Below, piece after piece: positions 16,449-40,754 of a stretch of DNA of 40,754 bases (position 1 is the first letter of the stretch; every line of letters starts with the position of its first letter). Origin of the DNA: a virus. The stretch spans positions 1 through 40,754 of IMG/VR virus record IMGVR_UViG_3300033475_000073. One strand, 5' to 3'. The notes under the pieces were generated by a model, which saw nothing but the letters and a program-made list of their open reading frames with translations, did no database searches and had not been told where the DNA came from. The position numbers and the translations under genes are program-made.

Positions 16449-17289
16449 GAGAGATGGCAAGTCGGATGAGGTTGTCGGGGACGGTTTCCATCCCCTGCCG
16501 TTGTCCGTCGTCCAGACCAGCAGCTCGGCGTGCCCCGGCTGCGAGTTCGTCAAACTGCGATGACTTTGCTGTGTTTCGATCAGGTCTGGCATTGAGGCAC
16601 CAATTCAAAAACGTCTTTTTCCAATCCAGTTTCGAAGCCTTGGCCCCGGTCTCGGAGGCCCAGTAGGCGGTGAACTTCGTTGCCTCTACCCGCAAACTCG
16701 GCGGCGCTCGACCAAGCTCACGGAAACGCTCCTCGACCCAGGGAAACCAATCTGCTGGAATTTCTTGGTCAGATGGCCAGCGAGTACCGCGAATGGCCCG
16801 AAGCTTTGAGGCGCTCGCGTCAGCGGGCGCGCCTTCTACTTTTTTCTCTGTATCTGTATCTGCTTCTGTATCTGCCTCTGGGGGCGTTACATCGGCCGTT
16901 ACTGTAACGTTACATGTAACGTTACGCTTGCGGTCCCTAAATGCAGCAACCCTTTGATTAGGCGAGTCAGACTTGTACTGGGCCTCGTCCCAATCGTGCG
17001 GTCGATAGCCACGTTCCGTTTTGTCGAACAGCTTCGCACTCAGCAGCACTTGCATCGTGTCTCGCACCTTTGCCGGCGGCTTGCGCAGCACGAACGACAG
17101 AACTTCCAGGTCATCAGTGAACTCGCCCCCATGTTTAGAGGCGAAGCACAGGAGCGTGTGCCAGGCTCGGTACTGCCAGTCCGAAAGCATCTGGACCTTC
17201 GGATTGTCCATTGTTGTTTCGTACTGCCTGAACCAACGACCTTTAGCCAATCTGTTCTCCGTCAGTGGACGGATTAAACGTGCGCTCAC
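16420..17289 (-). CDS. Putative replication initiation / replisome-organizer protein
   Basis: 289 aa. N-terminal MDNPKVQMLSDWQYRAWHTLLCFASKHGG (DnaD/DUF1376-like flavour), an acidic TD/EA linker, and C-terminal KFTAYWASETGAKASKLDWKKTFLNW. Confidence 0.55.
   Translation of the reverse strand: MSARLIRPLTENRLAKGRWFRQYETTMDNPKVQMLSDWQYRAWHTLLCFASKHGGEFTDDLEVLSFVLRKPPAKVRDTMQVLLSAKLFDKTERGYRPHDWDEAQYKSDSPNQRVAAFRDRKRNVTCNVTVTADVTPPEADTEADTDTEKKVEGAPADASASKLRAIRGTRWPSDQEIPADWFPWVEERFRELGRAPPSLRVEATKFTAYWASETGAKASKLDWKKTFLNWCLNARPDRNTAKSSQFDELAAGARRAAGLDDGQRQGMETVPDNLIRLAISHGNGGRSTG
16847..16925. repeat. ori-like repeat cluster inside the replication gene linker
   Basis: Six tandem hexamers TCTGTA TCTGTA TCTGCT TCTGTA TCTGCC TCTGGG (16847..16882) preceded by a T-run. 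Six GTTAC/GTAAC pentamers (16886..16925) include a perfect 22-bp palindrome GTAACGTTACATGTAACGTTAC (16904..16925). Confidence 0.5.
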
Positions 17290-20043: not shown

Positions 20044-20424
20044 ATGAAACCCTTGCGCATTCGCAATATATCACAGGCCGAAGTGGCGAATTCAGGCCAC
20101 TCGATCCAATGGCATTTCGTTCTGGAAGATGGAAAGACGTGGGCGTGTGAATGCCCGGCTGACCTGGTACTGCAAATGATGCTGACGTTTCATAACGCGG
20201 CATGTGCGGCAGCACGGGAAAGAAGCGCCGAACAATTCGGCCTGACCTATGCTGAGGAAGCGGTAGGCGTGCGCGCAGGCCGTTTGATGCAAGGCTTCGT
20301 GCTGGAATTTGCGATGAAACGGGGCTTTCCGATGCAGGTGTCCCTGTCGGAACAACTTGCAAAGGACGCGATAAAGCGGATTGACGAGGCGTTTTCGTTT
20401 GCGCCGCCAGAGGCGAAGAATTGA
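20044..20424 (+). CDS. Hypothetical 126-aa protein in the immunity region
   Basis: The native-looking part of the 199-aa track ORF begins at MKPLRIRNISQAEV. Codon usage is typical of the genome (CTG, GCG, GAA rich). Confidence 0.65.
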   Translation: MKPLRIRNISQAEVANSGHSIQWHFVLEDGKTWACECPADLVLQMMLTFHNAACAAARERSAEQFGLTYAEEAVGVRAGRLMQGFVLEFAMKRGFPMQVSLSEQLAKDAIKRIDEAFSFAPPEAKN

Positions 20425-20430
20425 CCATCC

Positions 20431-20628
20431 TCACGCGCTCCCGCCGATAAATTCATGCCAGGGGATGCCCGTAATCTTTTCAAGGCGCTTTGCAGTCTCA
20501 CGCGACGTGCCGCTTATTCCGCGACGGATGCGAGAAATTTGGGACCGGGAGATTTCGCCACCGGCCTTATCGGCCAAGGCAGAATCCCCTATTCCCCGCT
20601 TTGACATCCATTGGGCGAGCTGTGTCAT
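20431..20628 (-). CDS. Cro-like small HTH regulator
   Basis: 65 aa from MTQLAQWMSKRGIGDSALADKAGGEISRSQISRIRRG...AKRLEKITGIPWHEF. Divergent from the CI-like gene across the operator region. Confidence 0.7.
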   Translation of the reverse strand: MTQLAQWMSKRGIGDSALADKAGGEISRSQISRIRRGISGTSRETAKRLEKITGIPWHEFIGGSA

Positions 20629-20632
20629 AGGG

Positions 20633-20741
20633 AAAATGTGCACTAAATGCACGGCTTGTGCAAGAGGTGAACATCCAAAATGTGCATTTGGTGCCATGTT
20701 CGACCGCCGCCAGCCCCCGCAAAATGTGCGTATGGCGAAAA
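20633..20741. promoter_or_regulatory. Multi-site operator of the immunity switch
   Basis: 17-bp sites TGTGCA-N5-TGCACA type: 20637..20653 (TGTGCActaaaTGCACg), 20657..20673 (TGTGCAagaggTGAACA), 20681..20697 (TGTGCAtttggTGCCAt), and a weak one at 20725..20741. AAAATGTGC boxes at 20633, 20677 and 20721 are exactly 44 bp apart. Confidence 0.7.
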
Positions 20742-21067
20742 AGACAAAAAAGGCCGTCAAAGCCCTAGGGCGGCCCCGGCACTACCTGAGGGAATGGCGG
20801 GACTATCGCGGGCTCACGCTGGAACGCCTCGCAGAGCGCATAGGGCTGACGCACGGCACCCTGTCCAAGATTGAGCGGGGAAAGACCGCCTATACACAGC
20901 CGGTCCTAGAGGCCCTTGCAGAGGCCCTACAGACGACGCCGGCCGACCTCATCATGCGCGACCCCAGCAAGCCGAACCCTTGGGCGCCACTTGAGGGCGT
21001 CCCCGAGGCGGATAGACCGCGCCTCATGCAGATCATTCAGACATTTAAGACGGGAACAGACGGGTAA
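20732..21067 (+). CDS. CI-like XRE-family repressor (no peptidase domain)
   Basis: 111 aa from MAKKTKKAVKALGRPRHYLREWRDYRGLTLERLAERIGLTHGTLSKIERGKT. Classic XRE HTH; the protein ends after a short tail. Confidence 0.8.
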   Translation: MAKKTKKAVKALGRPRHYLREWRDYRGLTLERLAERIGLTHGTLSKIERGKTAYTQPVLEALAEALQTTPADLIMRDPSKPNPWAPLEGVPEADRPRLMQIIQTFKTGTDG

Positions 21068-23440: not shown

Positions 23441-24163
23441 ATGAACGCGCCTGCCAAGATAAAGCCTGAAGAAGCGAAGCCGGTTCACACGTTCTCGGAG
23501 GCCCTAGTCAGGCTTCAGGCCGCAATCCGGCCGGCGATCAAGGATGCCAACAACCCAGCATTCAGGGCGAAATATGCCGACCTGGGGGCTGTGTGGGAGG
23601 CGGTAAAGGATCCGCTCAAGGAGAATGGATTTGCGGTCGTACAGATGCCGCAGTTCGAGGGCGACACCATGTACCTCGAAACTATGCTTATACATGAAAG
23701 CGGTGACAAGCTGACGGGTCGCTATCCGCTCAGGCCCTCCAAGCCTGATCCGCAAGGGTATGGATCGGCTATCACGTATGCCAGGCGCTACGCCATCAGC
23801 GCCATGCTGGGCGTCATCGCTGATGATGACGACGACGGCAATGCCGCCAGCAATGTTGGTCAGCGTACTGTACAGACCGCACCCGCCAAACCAGCAACCC
23901 CTCACAATGCCGAGCAGGATCAAGACGTGACCGATGGCGTCACTAACTGGGTAGAAGCTCAGAAGCGCTTCCTCAACGCCTGTGGTGCCCTTCCCTCCGT
24001 CTACACATGGCTTGAGAAGATCGCGGGCGCCGGCACGATCACCGACCCAGACACCAGCAGCCCGCTCGACCGCCTCAAGAAGAAGTCGCCCGAAGCTTAC
24101 GGCGAAATCGTCCAAGCGTTTCAGCTTCGCCTCAGGCAGATCAATTCCAAGGAGAGCAAATGA
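23441..24163 (+). CDS. erf: ERF-family single-strand annealing protein
   Basis: NPAFRAKYADLGAVWEAV...MLIHESGD...GYGSAITYARRYAISAMLGVIADDDDDGN matches the ERF superfamily pattern. Confidence 0.88.
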   Translation: MNAPAKIKPEEAKPVHTFSEALVRLQAAIRPAIKDANNPAFRAKYADLGAVWEAVKDPLKENGFAVVQMPQFEGDTMYLETMLIHESGDKLTGRYPLRPSKPDPQGYGSAITYARRYAISAMLGVIADDDDDGNAASNVGQRTVQTAPAKPATPHNAEQDQDVTDGVTNWVEAQKRFLNACGALPSVYTWLEKIAGAGTITDPDTSSPLDRLKKKSPEAYGEIVQAFQLRLRQINSKESK

Positions 24164-24579
24164 GCGGTTCGGTCAATCTCGTAATTCTAGTGGGACACTG
24201 CGGCAAAGACCCCGAAGTTCGCCGCATGACCTCTGGCGAACCCGTCGTCACCCTGTCCGTAGCTACGTCGGAAACCTGGCGCGACAAATCCAGCGGCGAG
24301 CGCAAGGAAAAGACTGAGTGGCATCGCGTGGTTATCTTCAACGAACACGTCGCCAAATTCGCCGAAGCCCATATCGTCAAAGGCTCAAAGGTCTACGTGC
24401 AGGGATCGCTTCAGACCCGCAAATGGACCGACAAGGACGGGGCTGAGAAATACTCGACGGAAATCGTGCTTCAGCGATTCAAGGGCGAGTTAACGCTATT
24501 GGACGGGAAGAAGGATGGCGGCGAAACGGCGCCAGCGCACTTCGACAAAAAGCATATGGAAGACGAGATTCCCTTTTAA
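24160..24579 (+). CDS. ssb: Single-stranded DNA-binding protein
   Basis: OB-fold pattern VNLVILVGHCGKDPEVRR...TEWHRVVIF...VYVQGSLQTRKW, with an acidic C-terminal tip DEIPF. Confidence 0.92.
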   Translation: MSGSVNLVILVGHCGKDPEVRRMTSGEPVVTLSVATSETWRDKSSGERKEKTEWHRVVIFNEHVAKFAEAHIVKGSKVYVQGSLQTRKWTDKDGAEKYSTEIVLQRFKGELTLLDGKKDGGETAPAHFDKKHMEDEIPF

Positions 24580-24794: not shown

Positions 24795-25214
24795 GTGAAC
24801 GCCTGGTTCATCCGTGAAGACAGCGCACTTCGTCCCTTCGGTCGGGAAAGCGCAACTCTGTTCGATAAGGTGCCTCAGGGCAAGCCTGTCTTTGTGGAGG
24901 TGCGCCAGCCCCGCAACGCCAAGCATCACAGGCTCTATTGGACGATGTGCGCGCGGATTGCCGAAGCGGTCGGCTGCGAAGGCGAAGACATTTCCCATAT
25001 TCTCAAAATCCGCACGGGCCATGTCAAAGAGGTCAAGACCAAGCGCGGCATTGAGGAAATTCCGCTCTCCATCAGCTTCAAGGACATGGATCAGGAGAAG
25101 TTCCGCAACTTCTTCGACAAGTGCCTATACGTGATTGAGCATGAGATCGGCGTAGCCCGCCCAGACATTCTTGCCGAGATGAAAGACCTGATTGAGCCGC
25201 AGGAGGCTGCATGA
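24795..25214 (+). CDS. NinB/DUF1367-like recombination-associated protein (tentative)
   Basis: 139 aa, GTG start after GGAGGA. VFVEVRQPRNAKHHRLYWTMCARIAEAV parallels the lambda NinB segment IQERNRSLDQNRKLWACLGDV. Next to erf/ssb. Confidence 0.45.
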   Translation: MNAWFIREDSALRPFGRESATLFDKVPQGKPVFVEVRQPRNAKHHRLYWTMCARIAEAVGCEGEDISHILKIRTGHVKEVKTKRGIEEIPLSISFKDMDQEKFRNFFDKCLYVIEHEIGVARPDILAEMKDLIEPQEAA

Positions 25215-25414
25215 GCGAGTGGCAGCCTATAGAGACAGCGCCGAAGGATGGCACGGCGATTCTCGTGAGCGGGCTATCTCACGGCAAGCGGTACATCGAC
25301 ATCAATGTATGGCGCCGCAATGAGTGGCACTGTTTCCATCCGGAAGACAACGGATACACGGTCCCGGTCCTCCCAGCGACCCACTGGCAACCCCTGCCGG
25401 AGCCGCCGCAATGA
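25211..25414 (+). CDS. DUF551-like small phage protein
   Basis: MSEWQPIETAPKDGTAILV...THWQPLPEPP is the typical DUF551 signature. Confidence 0.7.
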   Translation: MSEWQPIETAPKDGTAILVSGLSHGKRYIDINVWRRNEWHCFHPEDNGYTVPVLPATHWQPLPEPPQ

Positions 25415-25797
25415 CTGGCCGATCCGTGCCGGAATGGATTGGCAAGACCGCCGACACCCCTATCCCTGACCGGGTGAAGCTTCGTGTCTTCGAGAAGCAC
25501 AAGGGCATGTGCCATATCGCCGGCCGCAAAATTCAGGCGGGAGAGCCTTGGGACGCAGAGCATGTCATCGCGCTCTGCAACTGGCTACCAAGCGACGACG
25601 CGCCCCACGGCAATAGAGAATCGAACCTAGCCCCCGCGCTTCGCTCGAAGCATCCCGAGAAAACCGCAGCTGACGTAGCGGAGAAATCCATGATCCATCG
25701 CAAGCGATCCAAGCATCTTGGCGTCGCAAAGGCCAAGCGCGGCTTCCCAAAACCTCCACCGGGATACAACGCCTGGACACGAAGGATTGAGACGTGA
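25411..25797 (+). CDS. HNH endonuclease
   Basis: 128 aa from MTGRSVPEW (ATGA overlap). CHIAGRKIQAGEPWDAEHVIAL...NLAPALRSKHPEKT gives the H-N-H arrangement. Confidence 0.75.
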   Translation: MTGRSVPEWIGKTADTPIPDRVKLRVFEKHKGMCHIAGRKIQAGEPWDAEHVIALCNWLPSDDAPHGNRESNLAPALRSKHPEKTAADVAEKSMIHRKRSKHLGVAKAKRGFPKPPPGYNAWTRRIET

Positions 25798-26015
25798 CCG
25801 CCATTAGCGCTGATTTTACCGTGAACTCAACGGCTATCGGCTGTGTGAGAAAATCGCTTTCCGATGATCTGCGCGCCGCGAGCATCGTGATCGCAAGCAT
25901 CCGTCGTCGGCTCGCCAGTGGTGAATACGCAGTGACAGGCAGCGATTTCATCGCGATCACTGAGCTGCATTCCGATACCGCCAATCTCGCGCACGACGCG
26001 CGCAAGCATCTTTAG
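25794..26015 (+). CDS. Hypothetical protein
   Basis: 73-aa track ORF, GTG start overlapping the upstream stop. Confidence 0.5.
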   Translation: MTAISADFTVNSTAIGCVRKSLSDDLRAASIVIASIRRRLASGEYAVTGSDFIAITELHSDTANLAHDARKHL

Positions 26016-26029
26016 AAAGCGAGCCACCG

Positions 26030-26191
26030 ATGCGGAAATGCACCTGCCATCCTTCTGACCGTCCGCCGCTCTGTCAGGGTCGCTACGCCGCGAGCGAGTG
26101 TCAGGCACGGTGGAAGCGCGACCGCTTGTGGCTGTTCGGATGGCTCGCGGCCATCGCCGGGCTAACCGTCATCATGTTTCTCAGCACGTAG
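26030..26191 (+). CDS. Small Cys-rich, C-terminally membrane-anchored protein (53 aa)
   Basis: Own reading: MRKCTCHPSDRPPLCQGRYAASECQARWKRDRLWLFGWLAAIAGLTVIMFLST. Preceded by the junction tagAAAGCGAGCcaccg. Confidence 0.5.
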   Translation: MRKCTCHPSDRPPLCQGRYAASECQARWKRDRLWLFGWLAAIAGLTVIMFLST

Positions 26192-26207
26192 GAATGGAGG
26201 GACAAGA

Positions 26208-26402
26208 ATGGTCCGGTGCGGTGAATGCCGATATTTTGTTCGCGACGGGAAGTGCGACTTCCTGCAATCCGCCGACGGTAAAGACCCGGCGCGGGCGTTT
26301 GCCCATGCCCCCTTCTGGGTCTGGTCGGACTGCTACAGCGACAAAGAGCAAGTTCGCGCGGGCGTCGAAAGTGCCCGTCCTGTCTTTTCACCTAAATCCT
26401 AA
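26208..26402 (+). CDS. Small Cys-containing protein
   Basis: 64-aa track ORF; GGAGGGA SD upstream. Confidence 0.55.
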   Translation: MVRCGECRYFVRDGKCDFLQSADGKDPARAFAHAPFWVWSDCYSDKEQVRAGVESARPVFSPKS

Positions 26403-26415
26403 AAGCGAGCCTGTT

Positions 26416-26616
26416 TTGAAGAAGCATTGGATCAAGGACAAGGGACTGACGCGGTTTTCCGAAACCGTGACCCATTGCGGCTTGGTCGGCTGGGAAGATG
26501 CCGTTGCCTCGCACGAGTTCGTGAATGTCAGTGGCGACAGCTTTGTCGCAGTCGAAAAACTGAAGGGTGTGACTTGTGGCCGGTGCCGCAAGGGCGCCAA
26601 TGCGAAATCCAACTGA
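26416..26616 (+). CDS. Hypothetical small protein (TTG start, tentative)
   Basis: The native-looking tail of the 172-aa track ORF is LKKHWIKDKGLTRFSETVTHCGLVGWED...CGRCRKG. Preceded by taaAAGCGAGCctgtt. Confidence 0.4.
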   Translation: MKKHWIKDKGLTRFSETVTHCGLVGWEDAVASHEFVNVSGDSFVAVEKLKGVTCGRCRKGANAKSN

Positions 26617-26632
26617 AAGCGAGCGATTGCCG

Positions 26633-26842
26633 ATGATCCTTTCTCCCCGCGCTGCGCTTGAACTCACCGTACCCGGTGATTCCGTCATGCTCGAATTGCA
26701 GGACGGGTCAAAGGTTGATGGCGAAGCAAGCTGGATCGGTAATGAAGGCGACGAGCCGCGAGATTGTTGGATGGGATTTGTCGGCAAGGACGGCGTGGAA
26801 ATTCTTAACGACACCATCAAAGCCGTTCACATCGATATTTAA
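26633..26842 (+). CDS. Hypothetical small protein
   Basis: 69 aa from MILSPRAALELTVPGD; preceded by AGCGAGCGATTGCCG. Confidence 0.55.
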   Translation: MILSPRAALELTVPGDSVMLELQDGSKVDGEASWIGNEGDEPRDCWMGFVGKDGVEILNDTIKAVHIDI

Positions 26843-26856
26843 GGGAGGGATTGCCC

Positions 26857-27045
26857 ATGATGGTCACAGCCAGGTTGACGCACCGAAACGGCAAGATGAT
26901 GGGGACCAAAAGCGTCCCCGAAGATTGCTTGGCGCTGCGGTATGGCGGATCGACGTTCGTTCGCACCAGCAGCGTCGATGGCGCGAACTCAGCCATCTAC
27001 TCGATGACTGACACCTATCACTTCAACAATCTCGATCAGGAATAG
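26857..27045 (+). CDS. Hypothetical small protein
   Basis: 62 aa; GGGAGGGATTGCCC before the ATG. Confidence 0.55.
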   Translation: MMVTARLTHRNGKMMGTKSVPEDCLALRYGGSTFVRTSSVDGANSAIYSMTDTYHFNNLDQE

Positions 27046-27056
27046 TGGAGCATCAA

Positions 27057-27233
27057 ATGAGCGAGAGGCAGACCTTTATCACCGGCAACGCGCAGACTGT
27101 GACCGACTGCTGCGAAGCAATGCGCGACGGCAAGTCGGTTGCCGTTGTCGTTTCCGGCATCACACTGGAAGGCGAAGTTGTTGCCATCCGCCGCCAGGAC
27201 GACGGCGATTTCCAGATCACCCTTCAGGAATAG
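27057..27233 (+). CDS. Hypothetical small protein
   Basis: 58 aa from MSERQTFITG; GGAG 6 nt upstream. Confidence 0.55.
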   Translation: MSERQTFITGNAQTVTDCCEAMRDGKSVAVVVSGITLEGEVVAIRRQDDGDFQITLQE

Positions 27234-27244
27234 CGGAGCCGTTC

Positions 27245-27517
27245 ATGCCGGGAGAAATCAGCCGCAGCATCGAAGCCAGAGACGACATGCCCTATGTCCC
27301 GTCTTGGTGTTACGCCGCCGGGCCGAAGATGTGCCCATGTGGCTGCCACGAAGGCTATCACAACGATGATCGTGAATGCCTGCGCCGCGCGAAATGTGGT
27401 TGCACCGGCATACCCGCCGAACTCGTCACCCCGATAGGTGGTGAGTCCACCCTCGGGCTCACGAAGGCCGAGGAAGAAGAAATTCTCGACCGGCCATGGA
27501 AGCCGGATCAGGAATAA
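27245..27517 (+). CDS. Cys-rich small protein
   Basis: 90-aa track ORF with WCYAAGPKMCPCGCHEGYH...CLRRAKCGC. Confidence 0.6.
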   Translation: MPGEISRSIEARDDMPYVPSWCYAAGPKMCPCGCHEGYHNDDRECLRRAKCGCTGIPAELVTPIGGESTLGLTKAEEEEILDRPWKPDQE

Positions 27518-27527
27518 GGAGCCGCAA

Positions 27528-27986
27528 ATGCAGAACGAAAAGGGCGTGATGCTTTCCAAGATGATCCTGCTGGCAACGCAGCATCACTCGGGGCAATTCG
27601 ACAAGGGCGGCAGGCCTTACATCCTCCATCCGCTGACCGTCATGCACCGGCTGCGGACTGACGATGAGGAATTGCAGTGCATCGCCGTCGGCCATGACCT
27701 GCTTGAAGATACGACCTGCACGGCAAGGGAATTGCTAGACGCCGGTTTCAGCCTCCGCGTGGTGACGGGCATCGAGGCACTGACCAAATCCCCGGACATG
27801 AGCCAGGGCGATTATAGGGCTGGCGTGAAGGCCAACCCTGACGCGGTGCGGGTGAAGATGGAAGACCTGCGCCACAACTCCGACATTCGCCGCCTCAAGG
27901 GCGTGACCGACAAGGATGTGCAGCGCGTCACCCGCTACCACCAATTCTACCTAGAACTGCGCGCCATTGCGCCAGTCATCCCGTAA
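27528..27986 (+). CDS. HD-domain (p)ppGpp/alarmone hydrolase-like protein (RelA/SpoT hydrolase fold, small alarmone hydrolase type)
   Basis: 152 aa from MQNEKG. ATQHHSGQFDKGGRPYILHPLTV, then VGHDLLEDTT, then VKMEDLRHNSD match the HD_4/SpoT hydrolase motif order. AAGGAGCC SD upstream. Confidence 0.75.
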   Translation: MQNEKGVMLSKMILLATQHHSGQFDKGGRPYILHPLTVMHRLRTDDEELQCIAVGHDLLEDTTCTARELLDAGFSLRVVTGIEALTKSPDMSQGDYRAGVKANPDAVRVKMEDLRHNSDIRRLKGVTDKDVQRVTRYHQFYLELRAIAPVIP

Positions 27987-27997
27987 GGAGGGACAAG

Positions 27998-28153
27998 ATG
28001 CAGCTTAATCCGTTGCGCTGGTGGGGCATCCGACACGTCCGTTGGTACTTCAAATATCAACGTGTTGACCATTGGGTCCGCGCGTGGGGCGGACTCTGCA
28101 TGAGCGCCAGCGATCAGAAGTATCTCGACGCCGTTTGGCGCGGAAAAAGATAG
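27998..28153 (+). CDS. Small Trp/Arg-rich protein (51 aa)
   Basis: Own reading: MQLNPLRWWGIRHVRWYFKYQRVDHWVRAWGGLCMSASDQKYLDAVWRGKR; AAGGAGGGA SD upstream. Confidence 0.45.
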   Translation: MQLNPLRWWGIRHVRWYFKYQRVDHWVRAWGGLCMSASDQKYLDAVWRGKR

Positions 28154-28164
28154 GAGCGATTGCC

Positions 28165-28371
28165 ATGACCAAGAAACACCCGTTCCTCTCTGCCGCCTCC
28201 GCGAAGGCCGCACGGGACGCTGCGCTGGCAACGGCTCCGGCGTTGCTTACCGACCTTGCCTGCATTGCTGCCTTCCATGTCGAAGACCCGCAGGCGCAGA
28301 TGAAGGTCTATGCCGCCATGAAGACGATCAACGTGCTGGCGGACCTGCCGCCAATGCCGCCCAAGAAGTGA
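28165..28371 (+). CDS. Hypothetical small protein
   Basis: 68 aa from MTKKHPFLSAASAKAARD; preceded by tAGGAGCGATTGCC. Confidence 0.55.
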   Translation: MTKKHPFLSAASAKAARDAALATAPALLTDLACIAAFHVEDPQAQMKVYAAMKTINVLADLPPMPPKK

Positions 28372-28385
28372 TGGAGGGACTGACC

Positions 28386-28565
28386 ATGAGAAAGATTGCC
28401 TGGAAATTGCGTTATGCGATCCATGCCTGGGGTCGCGGCATCCCGTGGCGCGCGGCTTGGCATTGCGCCGGCGCGAGCGTCGATGATGACAGCCTGGACC
28501 CGTGGCAGCAGCGCGACCCGTTGGAAGAAGCGGACGTTGAAATCTCTTACTGGCGCGAAGGCTAA
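28386..28565 (+). CDS. Hypothetical small protein
   Basis: 59 aa from MRKIAWKLRYAIHAW; GGAGGGA SD 5 nt upstream. Confidence 0.5.
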   Translation: MRKIAWKLRYAIHAWGRGIPWRAAWHCAGASVDDDSLDPWQQRDPLEEADVEISYWREG

Positions 28566-28575
28566 GGGAGCCGAT

Positions 28576-28707
28576 ATGTCGCCGTCCGAATGGATCAGGA
28601 AGGTTCTGCGCGAAGCCGCTGAGAAGGCAAAGCTGGAACACGCGCTCGGCCTTGGTCCTAAAATGCCGGATGGCACCTATCGCACCACCAATCCAGACCG
28701 GAAATAG
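28576..28707 (+). CDS. Hypothetical small protein (43 aa)
   Basis: MSPSEWIRKVLREAAEKAKLEH...; AAGGGAGCC before the ATG. Confidence 0.45.
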   Translation: MSPSEWIRKVLREAAEKAKLEHALGLGPKMPDGTYRTTNPDRK

Positions 28708-28716
28708 GAGCGTTCG

Positions 28717-28899
28717 GTGCTGAACCTGAAGGACATTGTTTTCGAGGACGGCGATTTCTTCGTGGTGAAGGTCGCCAAGGGCTTTGAAGTGTATCGGTCT
28801 GGCGTCACCCACCCGACGCGATGCGCCCAGATCGGCTTTGAAGGTCAGCCTGGGCTTGACCGCTGTAAGGCAGAAATCAACCGCCGCAAAGCGGCTTAG
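28717..28899 (+). CDS. Hypothetical small protein
   Basis: 60-aa track ORF, GTG start after TAGGAGCG. Confidence 0.5.
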   Translation: MLNLKDIVFEDGDFFVVKVAKGFEVYRSGVTHPTRCAQIGFEGQPGLDRCKAEINRRKAA

Positions 28900-28917
28900 G
28901 AATGGAGCGATTGAGCC

Positions 28918-29127
28918 GTGACTGAGCTAGAAAAAATCCGCGCTAACCCGGTGATGTCAAACCGAGAGAAAATTGCGCGCATCATCTTCTCAAAGCTGAA
29001 CACTGACCCCGATTGGGATGACGGTTATGAAATCCCGGAACAAGCGGCGCACTGCGATGAGGCGGAGGAACTGTCCCAGCAGGAATGTTTTGAGATAGCA
29101 GACGCCATCCTAGCGGCGCTGGAATAG
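28918..29127 (+). CDS. Hypothetical small acidic protein
   Basis: 69-aa track ORF, GTG start after ATGGAGCGATTGAGCC. Confidence 0.5.
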   Translation: MTELEKIRANPVMSNREKIARIIFSKLNTDPDWDDGYEIPEQAAHCDEAEELSQQECFEIADAILAALE

Positions 29128-29137
29128 GGACCCGCTG

Positions 29138-29314
29138 ATGCGGGTGCGATTGAACAAGAATACTGCGGAGGTTGTCCGGCTGCGCAACTTGGCAAAACGG
29201 ATCAGCGATCAGGCCGATAACCTGTCGCCCACGAACAACGTCCACCCTGCGCCGCTCATGCGCCAGTGGGTGCAGACCGTCATCGACATTGCCCAACAAC
29301 TCGAAGCGAAATAA
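29138..29314 (+). CDS. Hypothetical small protein (58 aa)
   Basis: Own reading: MRVRLNKNTAEVVRLRNLAKRISDQADNLSPTNNVHPAPLMRQWVQTVIDIAQQLEAK. Confidence 0.45.
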   Translation: MRVRLNKNTAEVVRLRNLAKRISDQADNLSPTNNVHPAPLMRQWVQTVIDIAQQLEAK

Positions 29315-29325
29315 CGGAGCCCATC

Positions 29326-29448
29326 ATGCTTGGCAAAATCCTTTGTTCTGTTGGACTGCACAAATGGGTTAGCGCGTCATACTTCTGCGACCGCTGCGAC
29401 CGTTGGATAACGCCGGGGCATTGGGCATTCTGGCGTAGCTGGTTTTAA
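29326..29448 (+). CDS. Hypothetical small Cys-containing protein (40 aa)
   Basis: MLGKILCSVGLHKWVSASYFCDRCDRWITPGHWAFWRSWF; ACGGAGCC SD upstream. Confidence 0.4.
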   Translation: MLGKILCSVGLHKWVSASYFCDRCDRWITPGHWAFWRSWF

Positions 29449-29458
29449 GGAGGGCCAG

Positions 29459-29617
29459 ATGCAGCAATGGATTTACAGCAGCAAGAACATCGCTCCCGGC
29501 GAAAGCCATTACGACATGTTGCGCCAGATGGGGCGCGAAGGTTGGGAAGCGTGGCACATCGAAAAGACCGAAAATGGCTGGCGCGAGATTTTCTTTAAGC
29601 GCCCGGTCGCGGAATAG
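29459..29617 (+). CDS. DUF4177-like small protein (52 aa)
   Basis: Own reading: MQQWIYSSKNIAPGESHYDMLRQMGREGWEAWHIEKTENGWREIFFKRPVAE; AAGGAGGG SD upstream. Confidence 0.5.
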   Translation: MQQWIYSSKNIAPGESHYDMLRQMGREGWEAWHIEKTENGWREIFFKRPVAE

Positions 29618-29626
29618 GAGCCGATC

Positions 29627-29818
29627 ATGCTGACCAAAGAGTATCTGGCCGAACGCATCGCCTATCACGGTGAAATCGTGGAAGCGCATGTCCTGGCCCA
29701 TGACCGCGCCTTGGCGACTGACCAGCCACCCAACCAGATCGAACACCATCTGAATACTGCGGCTCGCCATGCCGCCATCGTCACCGCTTTGACCGCCATA
29801 GCGGCGGCGAAACCCTGA
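29627..29818 (+). CDS. Hypothetical small protein
   Basis: 63-aa track ORF after TAGGAGCCGATC. Confidence 0.55.
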   Translation: MLTKEYLAERIAYHGEIVEAHVLAHDRALATDQPPNQIEHHLNTAARHAAIVTALTAIAAAKP

Positions 29819-29830
29819 GGAGCGATTACC

Positions 29831-30130
29831 GTGACCGCGCAGCTATCAGATACTCAGCCGCAGGCCGCATTCTCGGCGGCCGGCCTCGCGCGCCGCTGGG
29901 GCTGCTCAGCGCGGCATATTTACAACCTGATTGGCCAAGGGACCGTGCGCCCTTTTAAGATCGGCAACTTGTATCGTATATCGGCCTCGGAAGTGGCGAG
30001 GATCGAGAAATGCGGCTCCAGCTTTACCGGGGAAAGTGGGCAGCCACCGGAAGGACAAACGGCAAGCAGTGGCGGCGGTCCCTGGGTACAGCCGACCGCG
30101 CCGTCGCCGAGCGCCGATTCCGAGACCTGA
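29831..30130 (+). CDS. xis: Excisionase-type HTH DNA-binding protein
   Basis: AAGLARRWGCSARHIYNLIGQGTVRPFKIGNLYRISASEVARIE matches the excisionase/HTH_17 pattern. Directly upstream of int; its 3' 121 nt overlap int. Confidence 0.7.
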   Translation: MTAQLSDTQPQAAFSAAGLARRWGCSARHIYNLIGQGTVRPFKIGNLYRISASEVARIEKCGSSFTGESGQPPEGQTASSGGGPWVQPTAPSPSADSET

Positions 30131-30957
30131 AGGTTGAAGTACCTGGCGACATAGTTGCCGCGTATGTCGCCTCTTACTTGGCCGAAAAGCGCGAAAAGGC
30201 GCTACCGTCGATCAAAGCTATGGAATACGCATGGAAGGCGCTGGAGCCAACATTCGGAGTGCTGAGGCCCGATCAGATCACCCGCCAGAACTGCCAGGCA
30301 TACGCCAAGCGGCGGCGCAAGGCGGGCGTTCGGGACGGAACGGTCATCAAGGAACTAGGATTTTTGAAGGCAGCCCTGAACTGGGCCCGGAAGGGCTCTC
30401 AGGCGGTTTTCGAGATGCCTGGGGCGCCCCCACCGCGTGATCGGCACATCACCCTGGAAGAGTTCAATCGGCTTCTGGACGGCTGTCTCCTACCCCACAT
30501 GCGTCTGTTCTGCCTGCTGGGCTGGTACACCGCCGGCCGAGCGTCGGCCATCCTGGATCTGACTTGGGACCGGGTAGACTTTCAGAGGGGCCAAATCCGC
30601 CTGTCCAAGGGCGAGGGGCGCCGAAAGGGGCGGGCCACGGTTCCCATCGCTGATCGGCTGCGCACGGCGCTGTTGGAGGCCCAGGAAGCCCGCACAACCG
30701 ACTTCGTAGTGGAATGGGCTGGGCAGCAGGTTCGAAGCGTGGCCAGGGGGTTTCGGTCGGCCTGCGTCAAGGCCAAGCTCGATGATGTTTCTCCCCATGT
30801 CCTGCGCCACAGCGCGGCAGTCAGGATGGTGGAGAATGGCATCAGCCTGGCAGAAGTCGGCCAATACCTCGGGCATACCGACCTGAAGGTTACCTACCGC
30901 GTGTACGGTCGATTCACGCCTGGCCATTTGCGCAAGGCTGCGGAGGCGTTGGGTTAG
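30010..30957 (+). CDS. int: Tyrosine integrase
   Basis: 315 aa. Catalytic-box patterns TAGRASAILDL, HVLRHSAAVRM and LGHTDLKVTYRVYGRF (R, H-x-x-R, H, Y). Confidence 0.92.
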   Translation: MRLQLYRGKWAATGRTNGKQWRRSLGTADRAVAERRFRDLKVEVPGDIVAAYVASYLAEKREKALPSIKAMEYAWKALEPTFGVLRPDQITRQNCQAYAKRRRKAGVRDGTVIKELGFLKAALNWARKGSQAVFEMPGAPPPRDRHITLEEFNRLLDGCLLPHMRLFCLLGWYTAGRASAILDLTWDRVDFQRGQIRLSKGEGRRKGRATVPIADRLRTALLEAQEARTTDFVVEWAGQQVRSVARGFRSACVKAKLDDVSPHVLRHSAAVRMVENGISLAEVGQYLGHTDLKVTYRVYGRFTPGHLRKAAEALG

Positions 30958-30983
30958 GGACAGTGCGCTAGTGCGATTGAACT
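30957..30983 (+). repeat. Direct repeat DR1 flanking attP (candidate integrase arm site)
   Basis: GGGACAGTGCG-ctagtg-CGATTGAACT; partner at 31143..31170. Confidence 0.6.
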
Positions 30984-31064
30984 TTTCGGGCGGAACAAAA
31001 TGCGTTTGTTCTCCATTGGTTTCGCAGAACGTGCGCAGTTTTTCTAGGATTTCCGCGCGGCGAT

Positions 31065-31114
31065 TTCCCTTGGTAAGGGATAGGTCGTGAGTTCGATTCT
31101 CACCTACGGCACCA
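31065..31114 (+). other. attP core: 3' fragment of a tRNA-Thr(GGU) gene (anticodon arm to CCA)
   Basis: TTCCC-TTGGTAA-GGGAT anticodon arm (anticodon GGT), variable AGGTC, T arm GTGAG-TTCGATT-CTCAC, acceptor CTACGGC, then A and CCA. No matching 5' acceptor strand or D arm upstream, so it is not a complete tRNA. Confidence 0.8.
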
Positions 31115-31142
31115 TTCGTTTCAATAGCTTACGGGTTATTTC

Positions 31143-31170
31143 GGGACAGTGCGTCTGGGCCGATTGAACT
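31143..31170 (+). repeat. Direct repeat DR2 flanking attP
   Basis: GGGACAGTGCG-tctgggc-CGATTGAACT, 186 bp downstream of DR1. Confidence 0.6.
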
Positions 31171-31256
31171 CTGGCGCCCGCGCCGTCTGCGTGTAAACTG
31201 GGGCCCACCGACGCCCGCCATTCACCCTGACGCCGGACTAGCGAAGGGATTCGAGC

Positions 31257-31493
31257 ATGGGTGACCTCAGAAACAAATTCGCGAAGATCCAGCGCGCCAA
31301 GGCCGATAAGAGGGCCATGAATCGGTTTCTAGGGCTGCCGGCGGATTTCACACCTTCTTACCCAGCGCCAACACAAACCCGGTGTAGGTGCGGGTATACC
31401 TCTGTAGAGAGGCCTCTATGGCATGTGTCGGATAGAGGGGTGAACGGGGTTTATTGCAGGACGTGCTGGCCGGATGGAATTGAGAGGCCTTGA
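31257..31493 (+). CDS. Doubtful ORF (78 aa) in the attP-proximal region
   Basis: Track ORF. The first ~30 codons look native, but the rest is full of AGG/AGA/CTA/GTA codons and overlaps a cluster of CCTCT/AGAGG hairpins (31399..31438). Confidence 0.25.
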   Translation: MGDLRNKFAKIQRAKADKRAMNRFLGLPADFTPSYPAPTQTRCRCGYTSVERPLWHVSDRGVNGVYCRTCWPDGIERP

Positions 31494-31830
31494 ATGATGC
31501 GGGCCGGGCTTGATACCGGCTAGCGGGCCTTCCGAGGGGCGCCCTCCGCAACGCTTGGTACTTGCTGACAGCTTTCGCCCGTTCGTTCCCAATCGAAGCC
31601 CGGCAACTATCCCGCGCTGCTGTTTCGTGCGCGTCCATCCGCGCCGCCGCATCTGAAGGCCGTTTCGGAGGCTCTAGAACCCCGCATACCTGTCAGCGTC
31701 GAGGTGACAGGCTAAAACGGCCCACAGACAAGGCGATGTATTTACCTACCAAATCCACCCATAAAATGCAAGAGCGGGATTCCATTTAAGCCCGATAAAT
31801 GCTAGGTTAGATGAGAAGTTGGAGGTGCGC

Positions 31831-32073
31831 GTGGATATAGCGGAGGCCAGGAAAATAGCCGCAATAGTTGGAACCGCCGATGACGGATGCAGCCATTGCG
31901 TAAGAGGCTTAACAGATAGGCTAAACGACGCCTTCCCAGATTTTGTTTGGCATCCGACTGATGAGCCACAGCGAGAGATGCCGGCGTTGTCAACAGACAG
32001 CGACGACGCCACCACTATAGGAATAGTGGTCGCTGTATCGCGAAAAGATAAAGGCCCCGGCGACCCGCGTTAG
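31831..32073 (+). CDS. Moron-like hypothetical protein with atypical codon usage
   Basis: The GTG at 31831 lies 5 nt after GGAGG. VDIAEARKIAAIVGTADDGCSHCVRGLTDRLNDAFPDFVWH looks native. Many ATA/AGG/TTA/GTA codons, unlike the rest of the genome. Confidence 0.5.
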   Translation: MDIAEARKIAAIVGTADDGCSHCVRGLTDRLNDAFPDFVWHPTDEPQREMPALSTDSDDATTIGIVVAVSRKDKGPGDPR

Positions 32074-32090
32074 CAGATCAAGCCGGGGCC
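32053..32090. terminator. GC-rich stem-loop between convergent genes (candidate bidirectional terminator)
   Basis: GGCCCCGGC (32053..32061) pairs with GCCGGGGCC (32082..32090). 20-nt loop, no clear U-tract. Confidence 0.4.
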
Positions 32091-32141
32091 AGTACCGCGC
32101 TACTCAACAGCCGGGAGGGGGCCGACCGGAATGCGCGATCT

Positions 32142-32771: not shown

Positions 32772-33608
32772 TTAAATTAGATGTGCCCAGTCGCCGCCGT
32801 ATTTGGCGCGGTGGTATTGCTGCAAGCTCATGCCGGTATATTTGCGGCACAAATAGTCCAGCGAGAGCGGCATGGGGCAGTGTTCGCCGTTTTGCACCTC
32901 GTTCAGGATCACGATACCGCGCCAGTGCCGCTGACCCTGCGCACCGCGATACGGCTCCTCGTGAACGTAGCAGCTGCCGGCCTGAATGCCCCACCATGTC
33001 TTACCGTTGCCCATGATCTTGGTGCCCATATCCAAGCCCTGCTGATGGCCGTGGACGAAGGACGCACCGATCTTTGTGAGCTTGTTGACGATGGAGCCAC
33101 CGATGGGCCGGTTGCTGTGCGATGCCTGGAAGTAATGGCTGTAGAGTATGCCATCTAGTTCAACGACTTTTAGGAAGTCGTGGCGCTCCCAGTCACGAGT
33201 ATCGCACTGGTCTGAGCCGATAGTGCCAAGCCACTTGGGATTGTTATTCGCAGCGCGGTCGGCGCGTATCTCGTGGTTGCCGGTGATGAAGACCTTGCGC
33301 GGATTCCAGCGCGCCCTATGTCTTGTCCGCCTGCGCTCAATCTCCGCATCCATAGGCTTGCAGAGAGTTGCGAATGCGGCATTACCAACCGCAACGTCAT
33401 CAGCATACCGCGCACCTTCAAGTGGTGCGGAGCCTGGCTCTTCATGCCCGTTAAGGCTAGGATGGTCCCAATGGTCCCCTAGGTGAATGACAACATCGGG
33501 CCTATAGTGAACTATGGCCTCTGCGATCCATTCAAGGTGGTCGAGTGGAACGCCGGGACGGACTTGGGTATCGGGTATAATCAGGTGACGCCTTGGCCCC
33601 TCAGCCAT
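32772..33608 (-). CDS. Calcineurin-like metallophosphoesterase
   Basis: 278 aa with LIIPDTQ, VIHLGDHWD, ITGNHE and FVHGHQQG motifs in canonical order. Confidence 0.85.
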   Translation of the reverse strand: MAEGPRRHLIIPDTQVRPGVPLDHLEWIAEAIVHYRPDVVIHLGDHWDHPSLNGHEEPGSAPLEGARYADDVAVGNAAFATLCKPMDAEIERRRTRHRARWNPRKVFITGNHEIRADRAANNNPKWLGTIGSDQCDTRDWERHDFLKVVELDGILYSHYFQASHSNRPIGGSIVNKLTKIGASFVHGHQQGLDMGTKIMGNGKTWWGIQAGSCYVHEEPYRGAQGQRHWRGIVILNEVQNGEHCPMPLSLDYLCRKYTGMSLQQYHRAKYGGDWAHLI

Positions 33609-33949: not shown

Positions 33950-34378
33950 TTACTTCGTTGCGACGCCGTTGAGCTTCTCATACATACGCATACTGCCAAG
34001 GCCCAACATGCCGGCAAGCAGCGTCAGAAGCGTTCCCATATCGAGGCTGGGATAATCTACGATGCGCCCAAACCACTGCGACAAGAACATGGCGAACGGA
34101 CGGAAAATAAACTGAGACAGAAGGCCGAGAGCGCAAACCCAGCCAACGGCGGGCCGCCAACCGGAAACGAACAGATTTGGGTTAGCCGCCTCGGCCGCGT
34201 TGACGGCGTTCTGCGCCTTGGCGATGTCCGTATCAGCCGTCAGCTGCGCCAGTTCGCCAGTCTGCGTCATCTTCAGCAGCTCAAGCTTCGCCGCGTCTTT
34301 TTGCGCCGGGTCAGGCCAGAGACGGTCGATCAGCTTACCACCGATGTCGAGCGCGGCAGAGATTGGGTCAAATGCCAT
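33950..34378 (-). CDS. Holin, 3-TM GTA-type family
   Basis: 142 aa. AQNAVNAAEAANPNLFVSGWRPAVGWVCALGLLSQFIFRP...LLAGMLGLGSMRMYEKLNG matches the GTA_holin_3TM pattern. Confidence 0.8.
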   Translation of the reverse strand: MAFDPISAALDIGGKLIDRLWPDPAQKDAAKLELLKMTQTGELAQLTADTDIAKAQNAVNAAEAANPNLFVSGWRPAVGWVCALGLLSQFIFRPFAMFLSQWFGRIVDYPSLDMGTLLTLLAGMLGLGSMRMYEKLNGVATK

Positions 34379-34739: not shown

Positions 34740-36089
34740 CTAGCCAATCCTCCACCCTGACCCGTCATGGTAGACGGGCACATTGTTTGATCCGCCGCCA
34801 ACCGCAGAGGTGGCGAACGTCGTAGAATTGGCGTCTGATACGAAGGAGCGAGCTCCCTTGGCGCCGGTCGGGAGCGTTCCGACGGTATAGACCTTCGTCC
34901 CGAGCGTTCCGTTGCCAGTCGCAGTCGTACCGCCGATGATAAGGCTGCCGTCAGTCTGAACGACGGGGCCAAGGATTGAATCACTCGCGTTGTAGGCGAT
35001 GGTGAGCGCGGTTGTGCCGTGACCGGAGCCCGGTCCCATAAGCCACGCTTTTCCGCTCGCGGCTCCGTCGATAAAGCGTATCGAATCGCTGCTTACGCTA
35101 TTATTGGAAATGTTGAACTGGCTTGTGAGAGCTGCACCACCAACGCCAGCTTTGCCAGTCACCGCTAGCGTTGACGAGGCAGAGGTCGCCCGTGTGAGCG
35201 TGATATTGCCAGTCGATGTACCGCCCAGGGTAATCGTACCGGACCCCTTGGCATCGACTGTAAGGTTTTCATTTGTACCAGACGAATTTACCGAAATGGA
35301 GGCGCCTGACGCAGCCGCCCTGCCCGTGACCGTGATGCCAGTAGCGGCGCTTGGCGCAGATCCATCGACTTTTAGAGCGGGGTTGGTAGTTCCATTTGCG
35401 CCGACGCTTAGACTGGTGACAGTCAAATTCGAAGACGGCTTCCCGCCGGCGCTCCAAGAGAACGTAAAGAAGTCAGTCTGCGTGGCAAAGTCATCCGAAA
35501 GCGTCGAAAATCCCAGAAAGCCGGATGCGCCATAGATGACAGAGTTTTTCAGATTGGTGCCGGCACTGCTAGTGGCAAACTGAAATGTCGGCTGCGAACC
35601 GTCGCTAACACCAGGAAAGGAAGTGCCCATGCTAATCATGGTGAAAGCGCCGGGCCAAGGTGTACCCGTGACGGGAATTTGGCTCAGATAAACGGTAATA
35701 GTCTCATTGGCGAGCGAGCCGCCATTGTCCCACAGAACCTGAACATTCGTATTCGTGGAGAATGAGACACTGGAAATGGTGCCATAGATGGTGCCAGTGG
35801 ATGAGCCGACAGCCTTAACGCGGCGGTACTTGTGATAGACTGTGCTGACATCTACGCTGTTGATGCGAAATGCGTTGCCGCTGACGTAGACAACCTTGCC
35901 AACATCGGTGCCGTCACCAGAGCCGTAGCGGAACCAGATCAGATCGTTGAACGCAGATCGCGCATCCGCCATGTTTGCGCGGGCAGAATTGTTCACAACA
36001 CCGGGGTTCATCCCCTCGTCCCAGTTAATGCCAGTGTTGGCATTGATGTTGTTCGCGGCAGTTGTGGAATAGGTATTGTAGCCAGTCAT
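34740..36089 (-). CDS. Tail fibre / receptor-binding protein
   Basis: 449 aa, rich in G/S/T/N. The N-terminal INWDEGMNPGVVNNSARANMAD motif resembles virion-anchoring ends of podovirus fibres. Last structural gene before lysis. Confidence 0.65.
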   Translation of the reverse strand: MTGYNTYSTTAANNINANTGINWDEGMNPGVVNNSARANMADARSAFNDLIWFRYGSGDGTDVGKVVYVSGNAFRINSVDVSTVYHKYRRVKAVGSSTGTIYGTISSVSFSTNTNVQVLWDNGGSLANETITVYLSQIPVTGTPWPGAFTMISMGTSFPGVSDGSQPTFQFATSSAGTNLKNSVIYGASGFLGFSTLSDDFATQTDFFTFSWSAGGKPSSNLTVTSLSVGANGTTNPALKVDGSAPSAATGITVTGRAAASGASISVNSSGTNENLTVDAKGSGTITLGGTSTGNITLTRATSASSTLAVTGKAGVGGAALTSQFNISNNSVSSDSIRFIDGAASGKAWLMGPGSGHGTTALTIAYNASDSILGPVVQTDGSLIIGGTTATGNGTLGTKVYTVGTLPTGAKGARSFVSDANSTTFATSAVGGGSNNVPVYHDGSGWRIG

Positions 36090-36183
36090 GGCGATTTGCG
36101 ATTACCTATGAAATGGGGTAAAAGACCCTTCCCCTAGGAAGCGGCCCGTATGGAGCTCTCAACGGCTCTCGCCATTGTGATTG

Positions 36184-36206
36184 GAACGCCAATTCAGAAG
36201 GCGTTC
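36184..36206 (-). other. Stem-loop in the 123-bp gap upstream of the tail fibre gene
   Basis: GAACGCC-9 nt-GGCGTTC, beginning 7 nt after the stop of the 533-aa gene; no U-tract. Confidence 0.3.
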
Positions 36207-36212
36207 GTGAAG

Positions 36213-40513: not shown

Positions 40514-40754
40514 TAGAGTTTTTTCGCCATCACATAGGAAGCGAGCCGGTAGTCATCCAAGAACTTGGTCCACCCTTTGCGCGCAAAAAACCTGATTTCC
40601 TCGCAGCCCTCCTCTTTCGCCCACTTCTCGAACTCGCCGCGAAGATCAAAGAAATCCTTCATGTTCGCGCCACCGAACAACTCGATGTTGGCAATGAACT
40701 TGCCGGTCACGAACTTCTGAAGCGAGGTTACGCCGGCCGCAACGATCTGCTTTT
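40513..40754 (-). CDS. 3' part of the junction-spanning 104-aa hypothetical protein (5' part at 1..200)
   Basis: The track ORF 40513..40710 is the truncated version. The reading frame stays open to the window end and continues at 128..200 after removing the duplicated 127 bp. Confidence 0.6.
   Translation of the reverse strand, partial: KQIVAAGVTSLQKFVTGKFIANIELFGGANMKDFFDLRGEFEKWAKEEGCEEIRFFARKGWTKFLDDYRLASYVMAKKL
40628..40754. repeat. Terminal direct repeat, copy 2 (identical to 1..127)
   Basis: Same 127-nt string as 1..127. Confidence 0.95.

Follow-up and report, generated by a model that had tools for sequence, protein, structure and literature searches.

What would a phage gain from a small alarmone hydrolase (SAH) that stands alone in its genome, and on which substrate would such an enzyme act? 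The question is raised by a gene at positions 27528-27986 (plus strand) of IMG/VR virus record IMGVR_UViG_3300033475_000073, the whole of which (40,754 nucleotides, hereafter the window) was analysed here. Its 152-aa product is almost certainly a hydrolase of the RelA/SpoT homologue (RSH) family and of the Aph/PbcSpo type, and the explanation that we find best overall, and hold with moderate confidence, is that of an adenosine 3'-pyrophosphohydrolase that defeats defence by toxic small alarmone synthetases (toxSASs). The gene and its landmarks are as follows.

27528..27986, plus strand: coding sequence, stop included, of the predicted stand-alone RSH-family hydrolase (Aph1/PbcSpo-type SAH), supported by PHROG 990, Protein Data Bank (PDB) entry 7smg, the AlphaFold2 (AF2) model and Foldseek
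27516..27521, plus strand: Shine-Dalgarno sequence AAGGAG, 6 nt 5' of the ATG, read from the sequence
27582..27632, plus strand: motif HHSGQFDKGGRPYILHP, residues 19-35, containing D25-K26-G27 and the metal-ligand His34
27690..27713, plus strand: motif GHDLLEDT, residues 55-62, with the HD dyad H56-D57 and the catalytic pair E60-D61
27861..27893, plus strand: motif EDLRHNSDIRR, residues 112-122, with the metal ligand D113, the ribose contact N117 and the Aph signature residues D119 and R122
27933..27938, plus strand: R136-Y137, counterpart of Aph1 K133-Y134 (pyrophosphate contact)

An earlier note, made from the letters of the window alone, had described a 152-aa product with three ordered motifs and nothing else, and both parts of that description are borne out: the motifs lie at residues 19-35, 55-62 and 112-119 (the EDLRHNSD part of the third), and one domain occupies the entire protein. 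The frame opens at ATG 27528 and closes at TAA 27984-27986 (152 codons plus stop), with a start that is well supported by a strong, well-placed Shine-Dalgarno sequence and by homologues that start at the equivalent position (MxKGxML...). A longer version from GTG 27438 (182 aa) was rejected because it overlaps the upstream open reading frame (ORF) and has no Shine-Dalgarno sequence, and because homologues begin at the ATG. The AAGGAG overlaps the TAA stop (27515-27517) of that upstream ORF, which suggests that the hydrolase gene is translationally coupled within an operon. Judged by its composition the frame is coding, with a GC3 of 0.77 set against a GC2 of 0.41 and a positive self-trained codon log-odds score of 36, and the GC content of the gene (0.59-0.61) matches that of the genome (0.58), so that composition gives no hint that the gene was acquired recently. 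Homologues are plentiful, with 3,628 clusters at E <= 1e-10 and a match to PHROG 990 ('metal-dependent phosphohydrolase') at E 1.9e-53, similarity statistics that, as sequence comparisons go, are far beyond chance.

The label of a SpoT/Mesh1-type enzyme, given to this gene in the earlier note, stands at the level of the RelA/SpoT superfamily and gives way to Aph1/PbcSpo at the level of the subfamily. A sequence search of the PDB revealed 7smg (Aph1 of Bacteroides caccae) as the closest entry, at E 3.9e-28 over residues 6-144, with SpoT and Rel domains at E 1e-6 to 1e-8 and Mesh1 at E 0.005-0.03, and a profile of 54 homologues likewise matched Aph1 at 4.9e-32, with the next match at 7.8e-12. 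These comparisons are further supported by an AF2 model built on an alignment of 54 close homologues (alignment A2; mean pLDDT 88.5, pTM 0.85), for which the top four Foldseek matches were the chains of Aph1, with TM-scores of 0.84-0.86 normalised to the query and 0.89-0.91 normalised to the target and root mean square deviations (rmsd) of 1.9-2.4 Å (best match 7smg, TM 0.86/0.91, rmsd 1.9 Å). After Aph1 came Mesh1, the SAH of P. aeruginosa, RelH of C. glutamicum and the long Rel/SpoT enzymes, with target-normalised scores of 0.58-0.73 or lower, values that for the first three follow from targets 25-40 residues longer. The fold is compact, with 142-145 columns aligned to 7smg, and lacks the pair of helices with which (p)ppGpp-hydrolysing SAHs end.

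The hydrolase domain spans residues 6-147 of 152, without synthetase, TGS or ACT domains, which makes the protein a single-domain SAH, and it holds the metal ligands and catalytic Glu-Asp pair of the RSH superfamily. Every significant PDB match, by sequence or by fold, is to an RSH hydrolase domain. Placement in a different HD subfamily such as the dNTPases, the finding that according to the earlier note would speak against an alarmone hydrolase, was looked for and not found: no dGTPase/SAMHD1-type dNTPase and no HD-GYP/PDEase domain was among the significant matches, the best dNTPase being the dATPase of Salmonella phage PMBT28 (E 1.6, TM 0.43/0.35). Membership of the Mesh1 subfamily was rejected as well, given 22-23% identity to Mesh1 and a TM of 0.77/0.67 besides the search values above. 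Mesh1, SpoT and Rel hydrolase domains share the superfamily fold along with the residues for metal binding and catalysis (HD, ED, H, D, N) but are longer (178-190 aa or multidomain), have a guanine-stacking Arg where the window protein has D25, and have no equivalent of R122.

Assignment to the Aph family itself follows from a published definition, by which the family is delimited through homology of the C-terminal ~53 residues (Aph1 Y90-E143) with the HD motif excluded (Ahmad et al. 2023, PMC10083569). A search of the whole PDB with the C-terminal 60 residues alone retrieved only 7smg (E 2.7e-5, residues 96-141) and no other RSH at E <= 10, which places the protein in the family so defined. 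Assignment to PbcSpo is indirect and would follow from 56.6% identity to gp220 of Salmonella phage PVP-SE1, which was classed as PbcSpo by Jimmy et al. The protein gives a partial match to TIGR00691 (spoT_relA) at 2.4e-12. Its Pfam HD_4 score of 23.5 bits falls under the cut-off of 27.2, so that most homologues go without a Pfam label and many family members stand in the databases as 'hypothetical protein' or under a mistaken ppGpp-enzyme label. GenBank labels of phage homologues are inconsistent, ranging over 'hypothetical protein', 'metal-dependent phosphohydrolase', 'guanosine-3',5'-bis(diphosphate) 3'-pyrophosphohydrolase', 'GTP pyrophosphokinase' and 'RelA/SpoT family protein'.

The active-site residues predict an active enzyme, as H34, H56-D57, E60-D61 and D113 are invariant both in the 54 close homologues and in a broader alignment of ten sequences (A3: the window protein, Aph1, PVP-SE1 gp220, ORF099 of Ralstonia phage RSP15 and six metagenomic relatives). 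The roles given to GHDLLEDT, a metal-binding HD dyad and a catalytic ED pair, are those that we take to carry over from the established active sites of RelSeq and Mesh1. To the question of substrate, published work on Aph1 offers a signature of six residues that are conserved in Aph and not in (p)ppGpp hydrolases, namely D24, R96, D116, R119, K133 and Y134, of which D24 and R119 matter experimentally in that only the D24R+R119A double mutant gained ppGpp hydrolysis (PMC10083569). In the same study 12 of 12 purified Aph homologues hydrolysed ppApp efficiently, whereas ppGpp hydrolysis was undetectable in Aph1, absent from 10 of the 12 homologues and modest in the other two. In the broader alignment D25 corresponds to Aph1 D24, N117 to N114, D119 to D116, R122 to R119 and Y137 to Y134, all of them invariant, and K133 is conservatively replaced by R136, which is at least 90% conserved. 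Four of the six signature residues are therefore present exactly, including both experimentally validated specificity residues. The positions of D25-K26-G27 are described as R-R/K-S in (p)ppGpp hydrolases (PMC10083569), and Acinetobacter SpoT indeed carries R-K-S there in the PDB-search alignment. The hydrolase thus probably prefers adenosine 3'-pyrophosphates, so far as residues can tell, a better substrate prediction than the usual 'ppGpp hydrolase' label affords.

Aph1, a tetramer, is the known protein that the window hydrolase resembles most, both being phage-borne, compact single HD domains of about 150 aa that lack the additional helices found at the C-terminus of Mesh1 and of dimeric SAHs, with about 38-41% identity over the full length and D24, N114, D116, R119 and Y134 in common. 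They differ in that Aph1 has R96 where the window protein has G99 and is the immunity partner of an adjacent synthetase toxin, its gene following that of a (p)ppApp synthetase fused to MuF in a prophage of B. caccae (PMC10083569), whereas the window hydrolase is an orphan. The closest functionally tested relative is instead PVP-SE1 gp220, the only homologue in that phage, which covers 89% of the window protein and is, as in the window, a stand-alone phage gene with no adjacent synthetase. The phages are unalike, PVP-SE1 being a 146-kb strictly lytic enterobacterial myovirus and the window an uncultured 40.6-kb temperate phage of SU10 capsid type with a probably alphaproteobacterial host. Two further single-domain SAHs that detoxify toxSASs enzymatically, ATfaRel of Cellulomonas marina and PaSpo of Salmonella phage SSU5, are similar by description, but ATfaRel is a type IV antitoxin in a three-gene toxin-antitoxin operon and PaSpo belongs to another SAH subfamily.

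It is these relatives that point to a function. Many SAHs have been reported in phages and prophages, and the stand-alone SAHs of PVP-SE1 (PbcSpo) and SSU5 (PaSpo) neutralise CapRel, PhRel, PhRel2, FaRel2 and FaRel; counter-defence was proposed in the same paper (Jimmy et al. 2020, PMC7229694). Four toxSAS classes pyrophosphorylate the CCA end of tRNA, and SAHs including the PbcSpo enzyme ATfaRel strip this pyrophosphate and restore aminoacylation of FaRel2-modified tRNA (Kurata et al., 10.1101/2021.04.30.441581). PaSpo is in routine use as a means to keep CapRel and FaRel2 in check. The counter-defence reading put forward in the earlier note is accordingly one that was already published and that is supported, at the level of co-expression, by experiments on a close homologue, the 56.6%-identical gp220. 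For the window gene we lean towards counter-defence against toxSASs as its main biological role.

In the mechanism that we propose, the gene would be transcribed early with the recombination and accessory arm of the phage, and its product would act alone, with no partner gene, as a compact divalent-metal-dependent 3'-pyrophosphohydrolase with metal ligands H34, H56, D57 and D113, catalytic E60-D61, and D25 and R122 as base-reading residues that would favour adenosine over guanosine. It would confront toxSASs that infection sets off or that resident prophages bring with them, of which FaRel makes (pp)pApp and CapRel, PhRel, PhRel2 and FaRel2 pyrophosphorylate tRNA. The enzyme would cleave the 3'-pyrophosphate from pApp, ppApp and pppApp (FaRel/Tas1-type products) and, as we infer, from pyrophosphorylated A76 of the tRNA CCA end (the CapRel/PhRel/FaRel2-type product); because (pp)pApp and pyrophosphorylated tRNA are both adenosine 3'-pyrophosphates, both would fit the D25/R122 pocket. 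Translation and purine synthesis would be kept running, the phage would replicate, and toxSAS-mediated abortive infection would be cancelled.

Several observations weigh against this account. One residue of the Aph signature is lost, Aph1 R96 aligning with G99, with R97 and K101 nearby at least 90% conserved. The modest ppGpp activity of two of the 12 tested Aph homologues means that sequence cannot fix specificity with certainty. The proposed early expression is read from gene order. The neutralisation reported in the literature was seen on co-expression from plasmids, and our literature search found no demonstration of a phage SAH overcoming toxSAS defence during real infection.

That the hydrolase would act without a partner is in keeping with its genomic setting. 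The window begins and ends with the same 127 nt (1-127 and 40628-40754), an assembler overlap which indicates a complete phage genome, closed into a circle of ~40.6 kb (about 40,627 bp). Neither a RelA_SpoT synthetase nor a MuF domain came up in Pfam scans of 88 ORFs (all predicted genes, with long ORFs from ambiguous regions added), and PADLOC found no defence protein among 58 proteins. In a complete genome without a synthetase the hydrolase is an orphan, not the immunity gene of a phage-borne toxin. Among 13 related loci, too, no synthetase adjoins the hydrolase gene.

The same gene recurs in very different phages. When 22 window proteins were searched by tblastn against 16 related loci, the hydrolase gene alone was common to them. 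It therefore travels by itself, as a solitary cassette, among phages that are not otherwise related, be they of P22-portal type, of SU10 type or large lytic myoviruses. A homologue is carried by 305 phage records, most of them of strictly lytic large myoviruses (Vequintavirinae, Aeromonas T4-like phages and RSP15). To the hundreds of phage genomes with a stand-alone Aph/PbcSpo hydrolase the window thereby adds one more, that of an uncultured temperate phage whose capsid is of SU10 type, and it favours the view of such genes as single-gene anti-toxSAS cassettes that phages exchange freely. As the family, its occurrence in phages and the anti-toxSAS activity of a 57%-identical homologue were already in the literature, the significance of this addition is modest.

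In the relatives the hydrolase genes lie in early accessory arrays with accessory or anti-defence neighbours. In a 43.5-kb metagenomic phage (L004, 4758-6456) the hydrolase comes directly after genes for Lar restriction alleviation and for a HAD/PNKP-like phosphatase, and a cytosine DNA methylase is encoded upstream, in what appears to be an anti-defence cluster; at other loci the neighbours include an N6/N4 methylase (L012), Mom (L015) and an ORF with a weak match to Acb2/Tad1 (L005). The closest homologue from a cultured phage, ORF099 of RSP15 (L001, 1700-10500; 59.7% identity), lies just 3' of a cluster of seven tRNA genes and is followed by a 'NEDD4-binding protein' (possibly PNK-like) and three metallophosphoesterase/phosphoesterase genes, surroundings that look like a tRNA-repair neighbourhood and would fit a pyrophosphorylated tRNA substrate.

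The position of ORF099 between the tRNA cluster and the PNK-like and metallophosphoesterase genes, along with the PNKP-like phosphatase two genes upstream in L004, hints at a narrower version of the proposal, in which the physiological substrate is 3'-pyrophosphorylated A76 of host (or phage) tRNA and the Aph/PbcSpo phage hydrolases are dedicated tRNA-repair enzymes. We regard this as tentative and, for now, rather doubtful. Were it true, the adenine pocket of D25 and R122 would have evolved to recognise the CCA end, and the family would be a widespread counter-measure to CapRel/PhRel/FaRel2 immunity.

Among other explanations, the one that survives best, though we think it unlikely, is that the gene is expressed from the prophage and shields the lysogen from imported (p)ppApp-synthetase toxins, such as Tas1/Apk1-type effectors of the type VI secretion system (T6SS), exported alarmone synthetases or MuF-Apk2 toxins injected by other phages, so acting as a fitness factor or a superinfection shield. 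The phage is temperate, with an integrase and a Cro/CI-type helix-turn-helix (HTH) gene, and the Aph-type adenosine signature fits (p)ppApp toxins; moreover, Aph1 protects against the non-cognate T6SS toxin Tas1, and in bacteria about 14% of Aph homologues have an integrase nearby but no toxin (PMC10083569). Yet the gene bears no moron-like sign of autonomous expression, being Shine-Dalgarno-coupled 10 nt after the preceding ORF with no promoter- or terminator-like site flanking it on the plus strand, and it lies in the recombination arm, which by analogy with lambdoid phages would be repressed in lysogens. Protection of a lysogen is also impossible in the strictly lytic large myoviruses that hold most of the 305 homologues.

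Less probable still, and improbable in our judgement, is a shut-off of the host stringent response, which the earlier note had set beside counter-defence and which comes out as the weaker of the two, as the signature predicts adenosine 3'-pyrophosphates. Here the enzyme would degrade host (p)ppGpp and so spare transcription, translation and replication or bias the choice between lysis and lysogeny, a role consistent with its RSH hydrolase domain, with the Rel/SpoT matches of the PDB search, with the modest ppGpp activity seen in two of the 12 Aph homologues, and with homologues labelled '(p)ppGpp synthase/HD superfamily hydrolase' or guanosine-3',5'-bis(diphosphate) 3'-pyrophosphohydrolase. 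Those labels, however, are automatic transfers. An invariant D25 replaces the guanine-stacking Arg (R43 in TtRel; R-K-S in SpoT), the retained R122 is the residue that in Aph1 blocks the guanine carbonyl, and the remaining Aph enzymes assayed, Aph1 among them, left ppGpp intact unless, in Aph1, both residues were mutated.

A substrate outside the alarmones, some other 3'- or 2'-phosphorylated adenosine compound whose cleavage would reprogram metabolism or destroy a signalling nucleotide, is very improbable. RSH hydrolases are a catalytically versatile group, the fold matches include Mesh1 structures with NADPH and PAPS (metazoan Mesh1 is an NADPH phosphatase and binds PAPS), and relatives of the gene adjoin anti-defence genes directed at nucleotide signals, such as the weakly matching Acb2/Tad1-like ORF; against this, the similarity to Mesh1 is far below that to Aph1, and every one of the 12 Aph-clade enzymes tested hydrolysed ppApp efficiently. 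That the gene is an antidote to the phage's own toxin, as in an Apk2-Aph1 pair or a type IV toxSAS-SAH module (the native contexts of Aph1 and ATfaRel), is barely credible and already largely refuted, as the complete circular genome has no co-encoded synthetase or MuF domain in the 88 ORFs and no PADLOC match, and the 13 related loci show neither an adjoining synthetase nor a conserved neighbour.

Returning to the hydrolase in its own genome, the features around it and along the window are listed below.

3203-3853, minus strand: adaptor
5984-6964, minus strand: SU10-type major capsid protein
6987-7901, minus strand: scaffold
8158-10269, minus strand: SU10 portal
10452-11759, minus strand: large terminase
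12072-12551, minus strand: OmpR-type winged-helix protein of 159 aa (Trans_reg_C, E 7.4e-12), just upstream of the terminase genes
16420-17289, minus strand: replication initiator
20381-21067, plus strand: Cro/CI-type HTH gene, start of the plus-strand arm
23441-24163, plus strand: Erf
24160-24579, plus strand: SSB
24795-25214, plus strand: NinB
25324-25797, plus strand: HNH endonuclease
27245..27517, plus strand: upstream neighbour of the hydrolase gene, a 90-aa Cys-rich ORF (CPCGCHEGYHNDDRECLRRAKCGC) of the same operon, apparently translationally coupled to it
27998..28153, plus strand: downstream 51-aa ORF with its own Shine-Dalgarno sequence AAGGAGG, 12 nt 3' of the hydrolase stop, of uncertain coding status
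30010-30957, plus strand: tyrosine integrase (phrog_1, E 3.6e-53), end of the plus-strand arm
32772-33608, minus strand: metallophosphoesterase (phrog_221, E 3.6e-49), between the lysis and ejection genes
33950-34378, minus strand: 3-TM holin
34740-36089, 36213-37814 and 37799-39289, minus strand: three large ORFs (449, 533 and 496 aa) that adjoin the DNA-ejection gene, with essentially no Pfam or PHROG matches
39293-40513, minus strand: DNA-ejection protein

The hydrolase gene sits among small, tightly packed plus-strand ORFs between the HNH gene and the integrase, and the presence of that tyrosine integrase on the same arm indicates a temperate phage. The earlier note's "early accessory region" is reasonable as to location, in that the plus-strand arm opens with the Cro/CI HTH gene, continues with Erf, SSB, NinB and HNH and closes with the integrase, while its timing is a matter of analogy, the arm being one that, after the model of the lambda pL operon, would serve early recombination, accessory functions and integration. 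A promoter scan of 20.5-32.5 kb found no sigma-70-like site on the plus strand and fewer sites than in shuffled sequence, an outcome that says little either way. A terminator-like hairpin lies on the plus strand at 26358-26378, 1.1 kb 5' of the hydrolase gene and within a gene-poor gap (26015-26576).

Neither immediate neighbour belongs to a conserved unit with the hydrolase. The Cys-rich 90-aa ORF, which may bind zinc, has no PHROG or Pfam match and is not found beside the hydrolase gene in the 16 related loci. Downstream, the 51-aa ORF overlaps, in another frame, a 99-aa ORF on the plus strand (28072-28371); either may be the real gene, and neither of these has family matches or is found with the hydrolase in related loci. 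A tRNA scan of the window found none. Elsewhere, the OmpR-type protein may be a late-gene regulator, the three large ORFs at 34740-39289 are probably internal virion, ejection or tail proteins, and the 1.2-kb gene-poor gap after the integrase (30958-32141), in which only weak repeats of 14-15 nt and no attP were identified, is probably the attP region.

As for the phage as a whole, a megablast search of positions 25000-31000 against 50,697 phage records gave no match, which leaves it without a close cultured relative, and a scan of genome contigs with the single hydrolase protein found three loci, all in metagenome-assembled genomes. The portal is at most 40% identical to those of freshwater metagenome, Bradyrhizobium and Rhizobium phages, and the host is probably an alphaproteobacterium, though the hints are weak. 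Single predicted proteins of the window also match Pfam Tlde1/YkuD (L,D-transpeptidase-like), SprT-like metalloprotease, DUF6378, DUF5681, DUF5675, RusA and K1-lyase_C.

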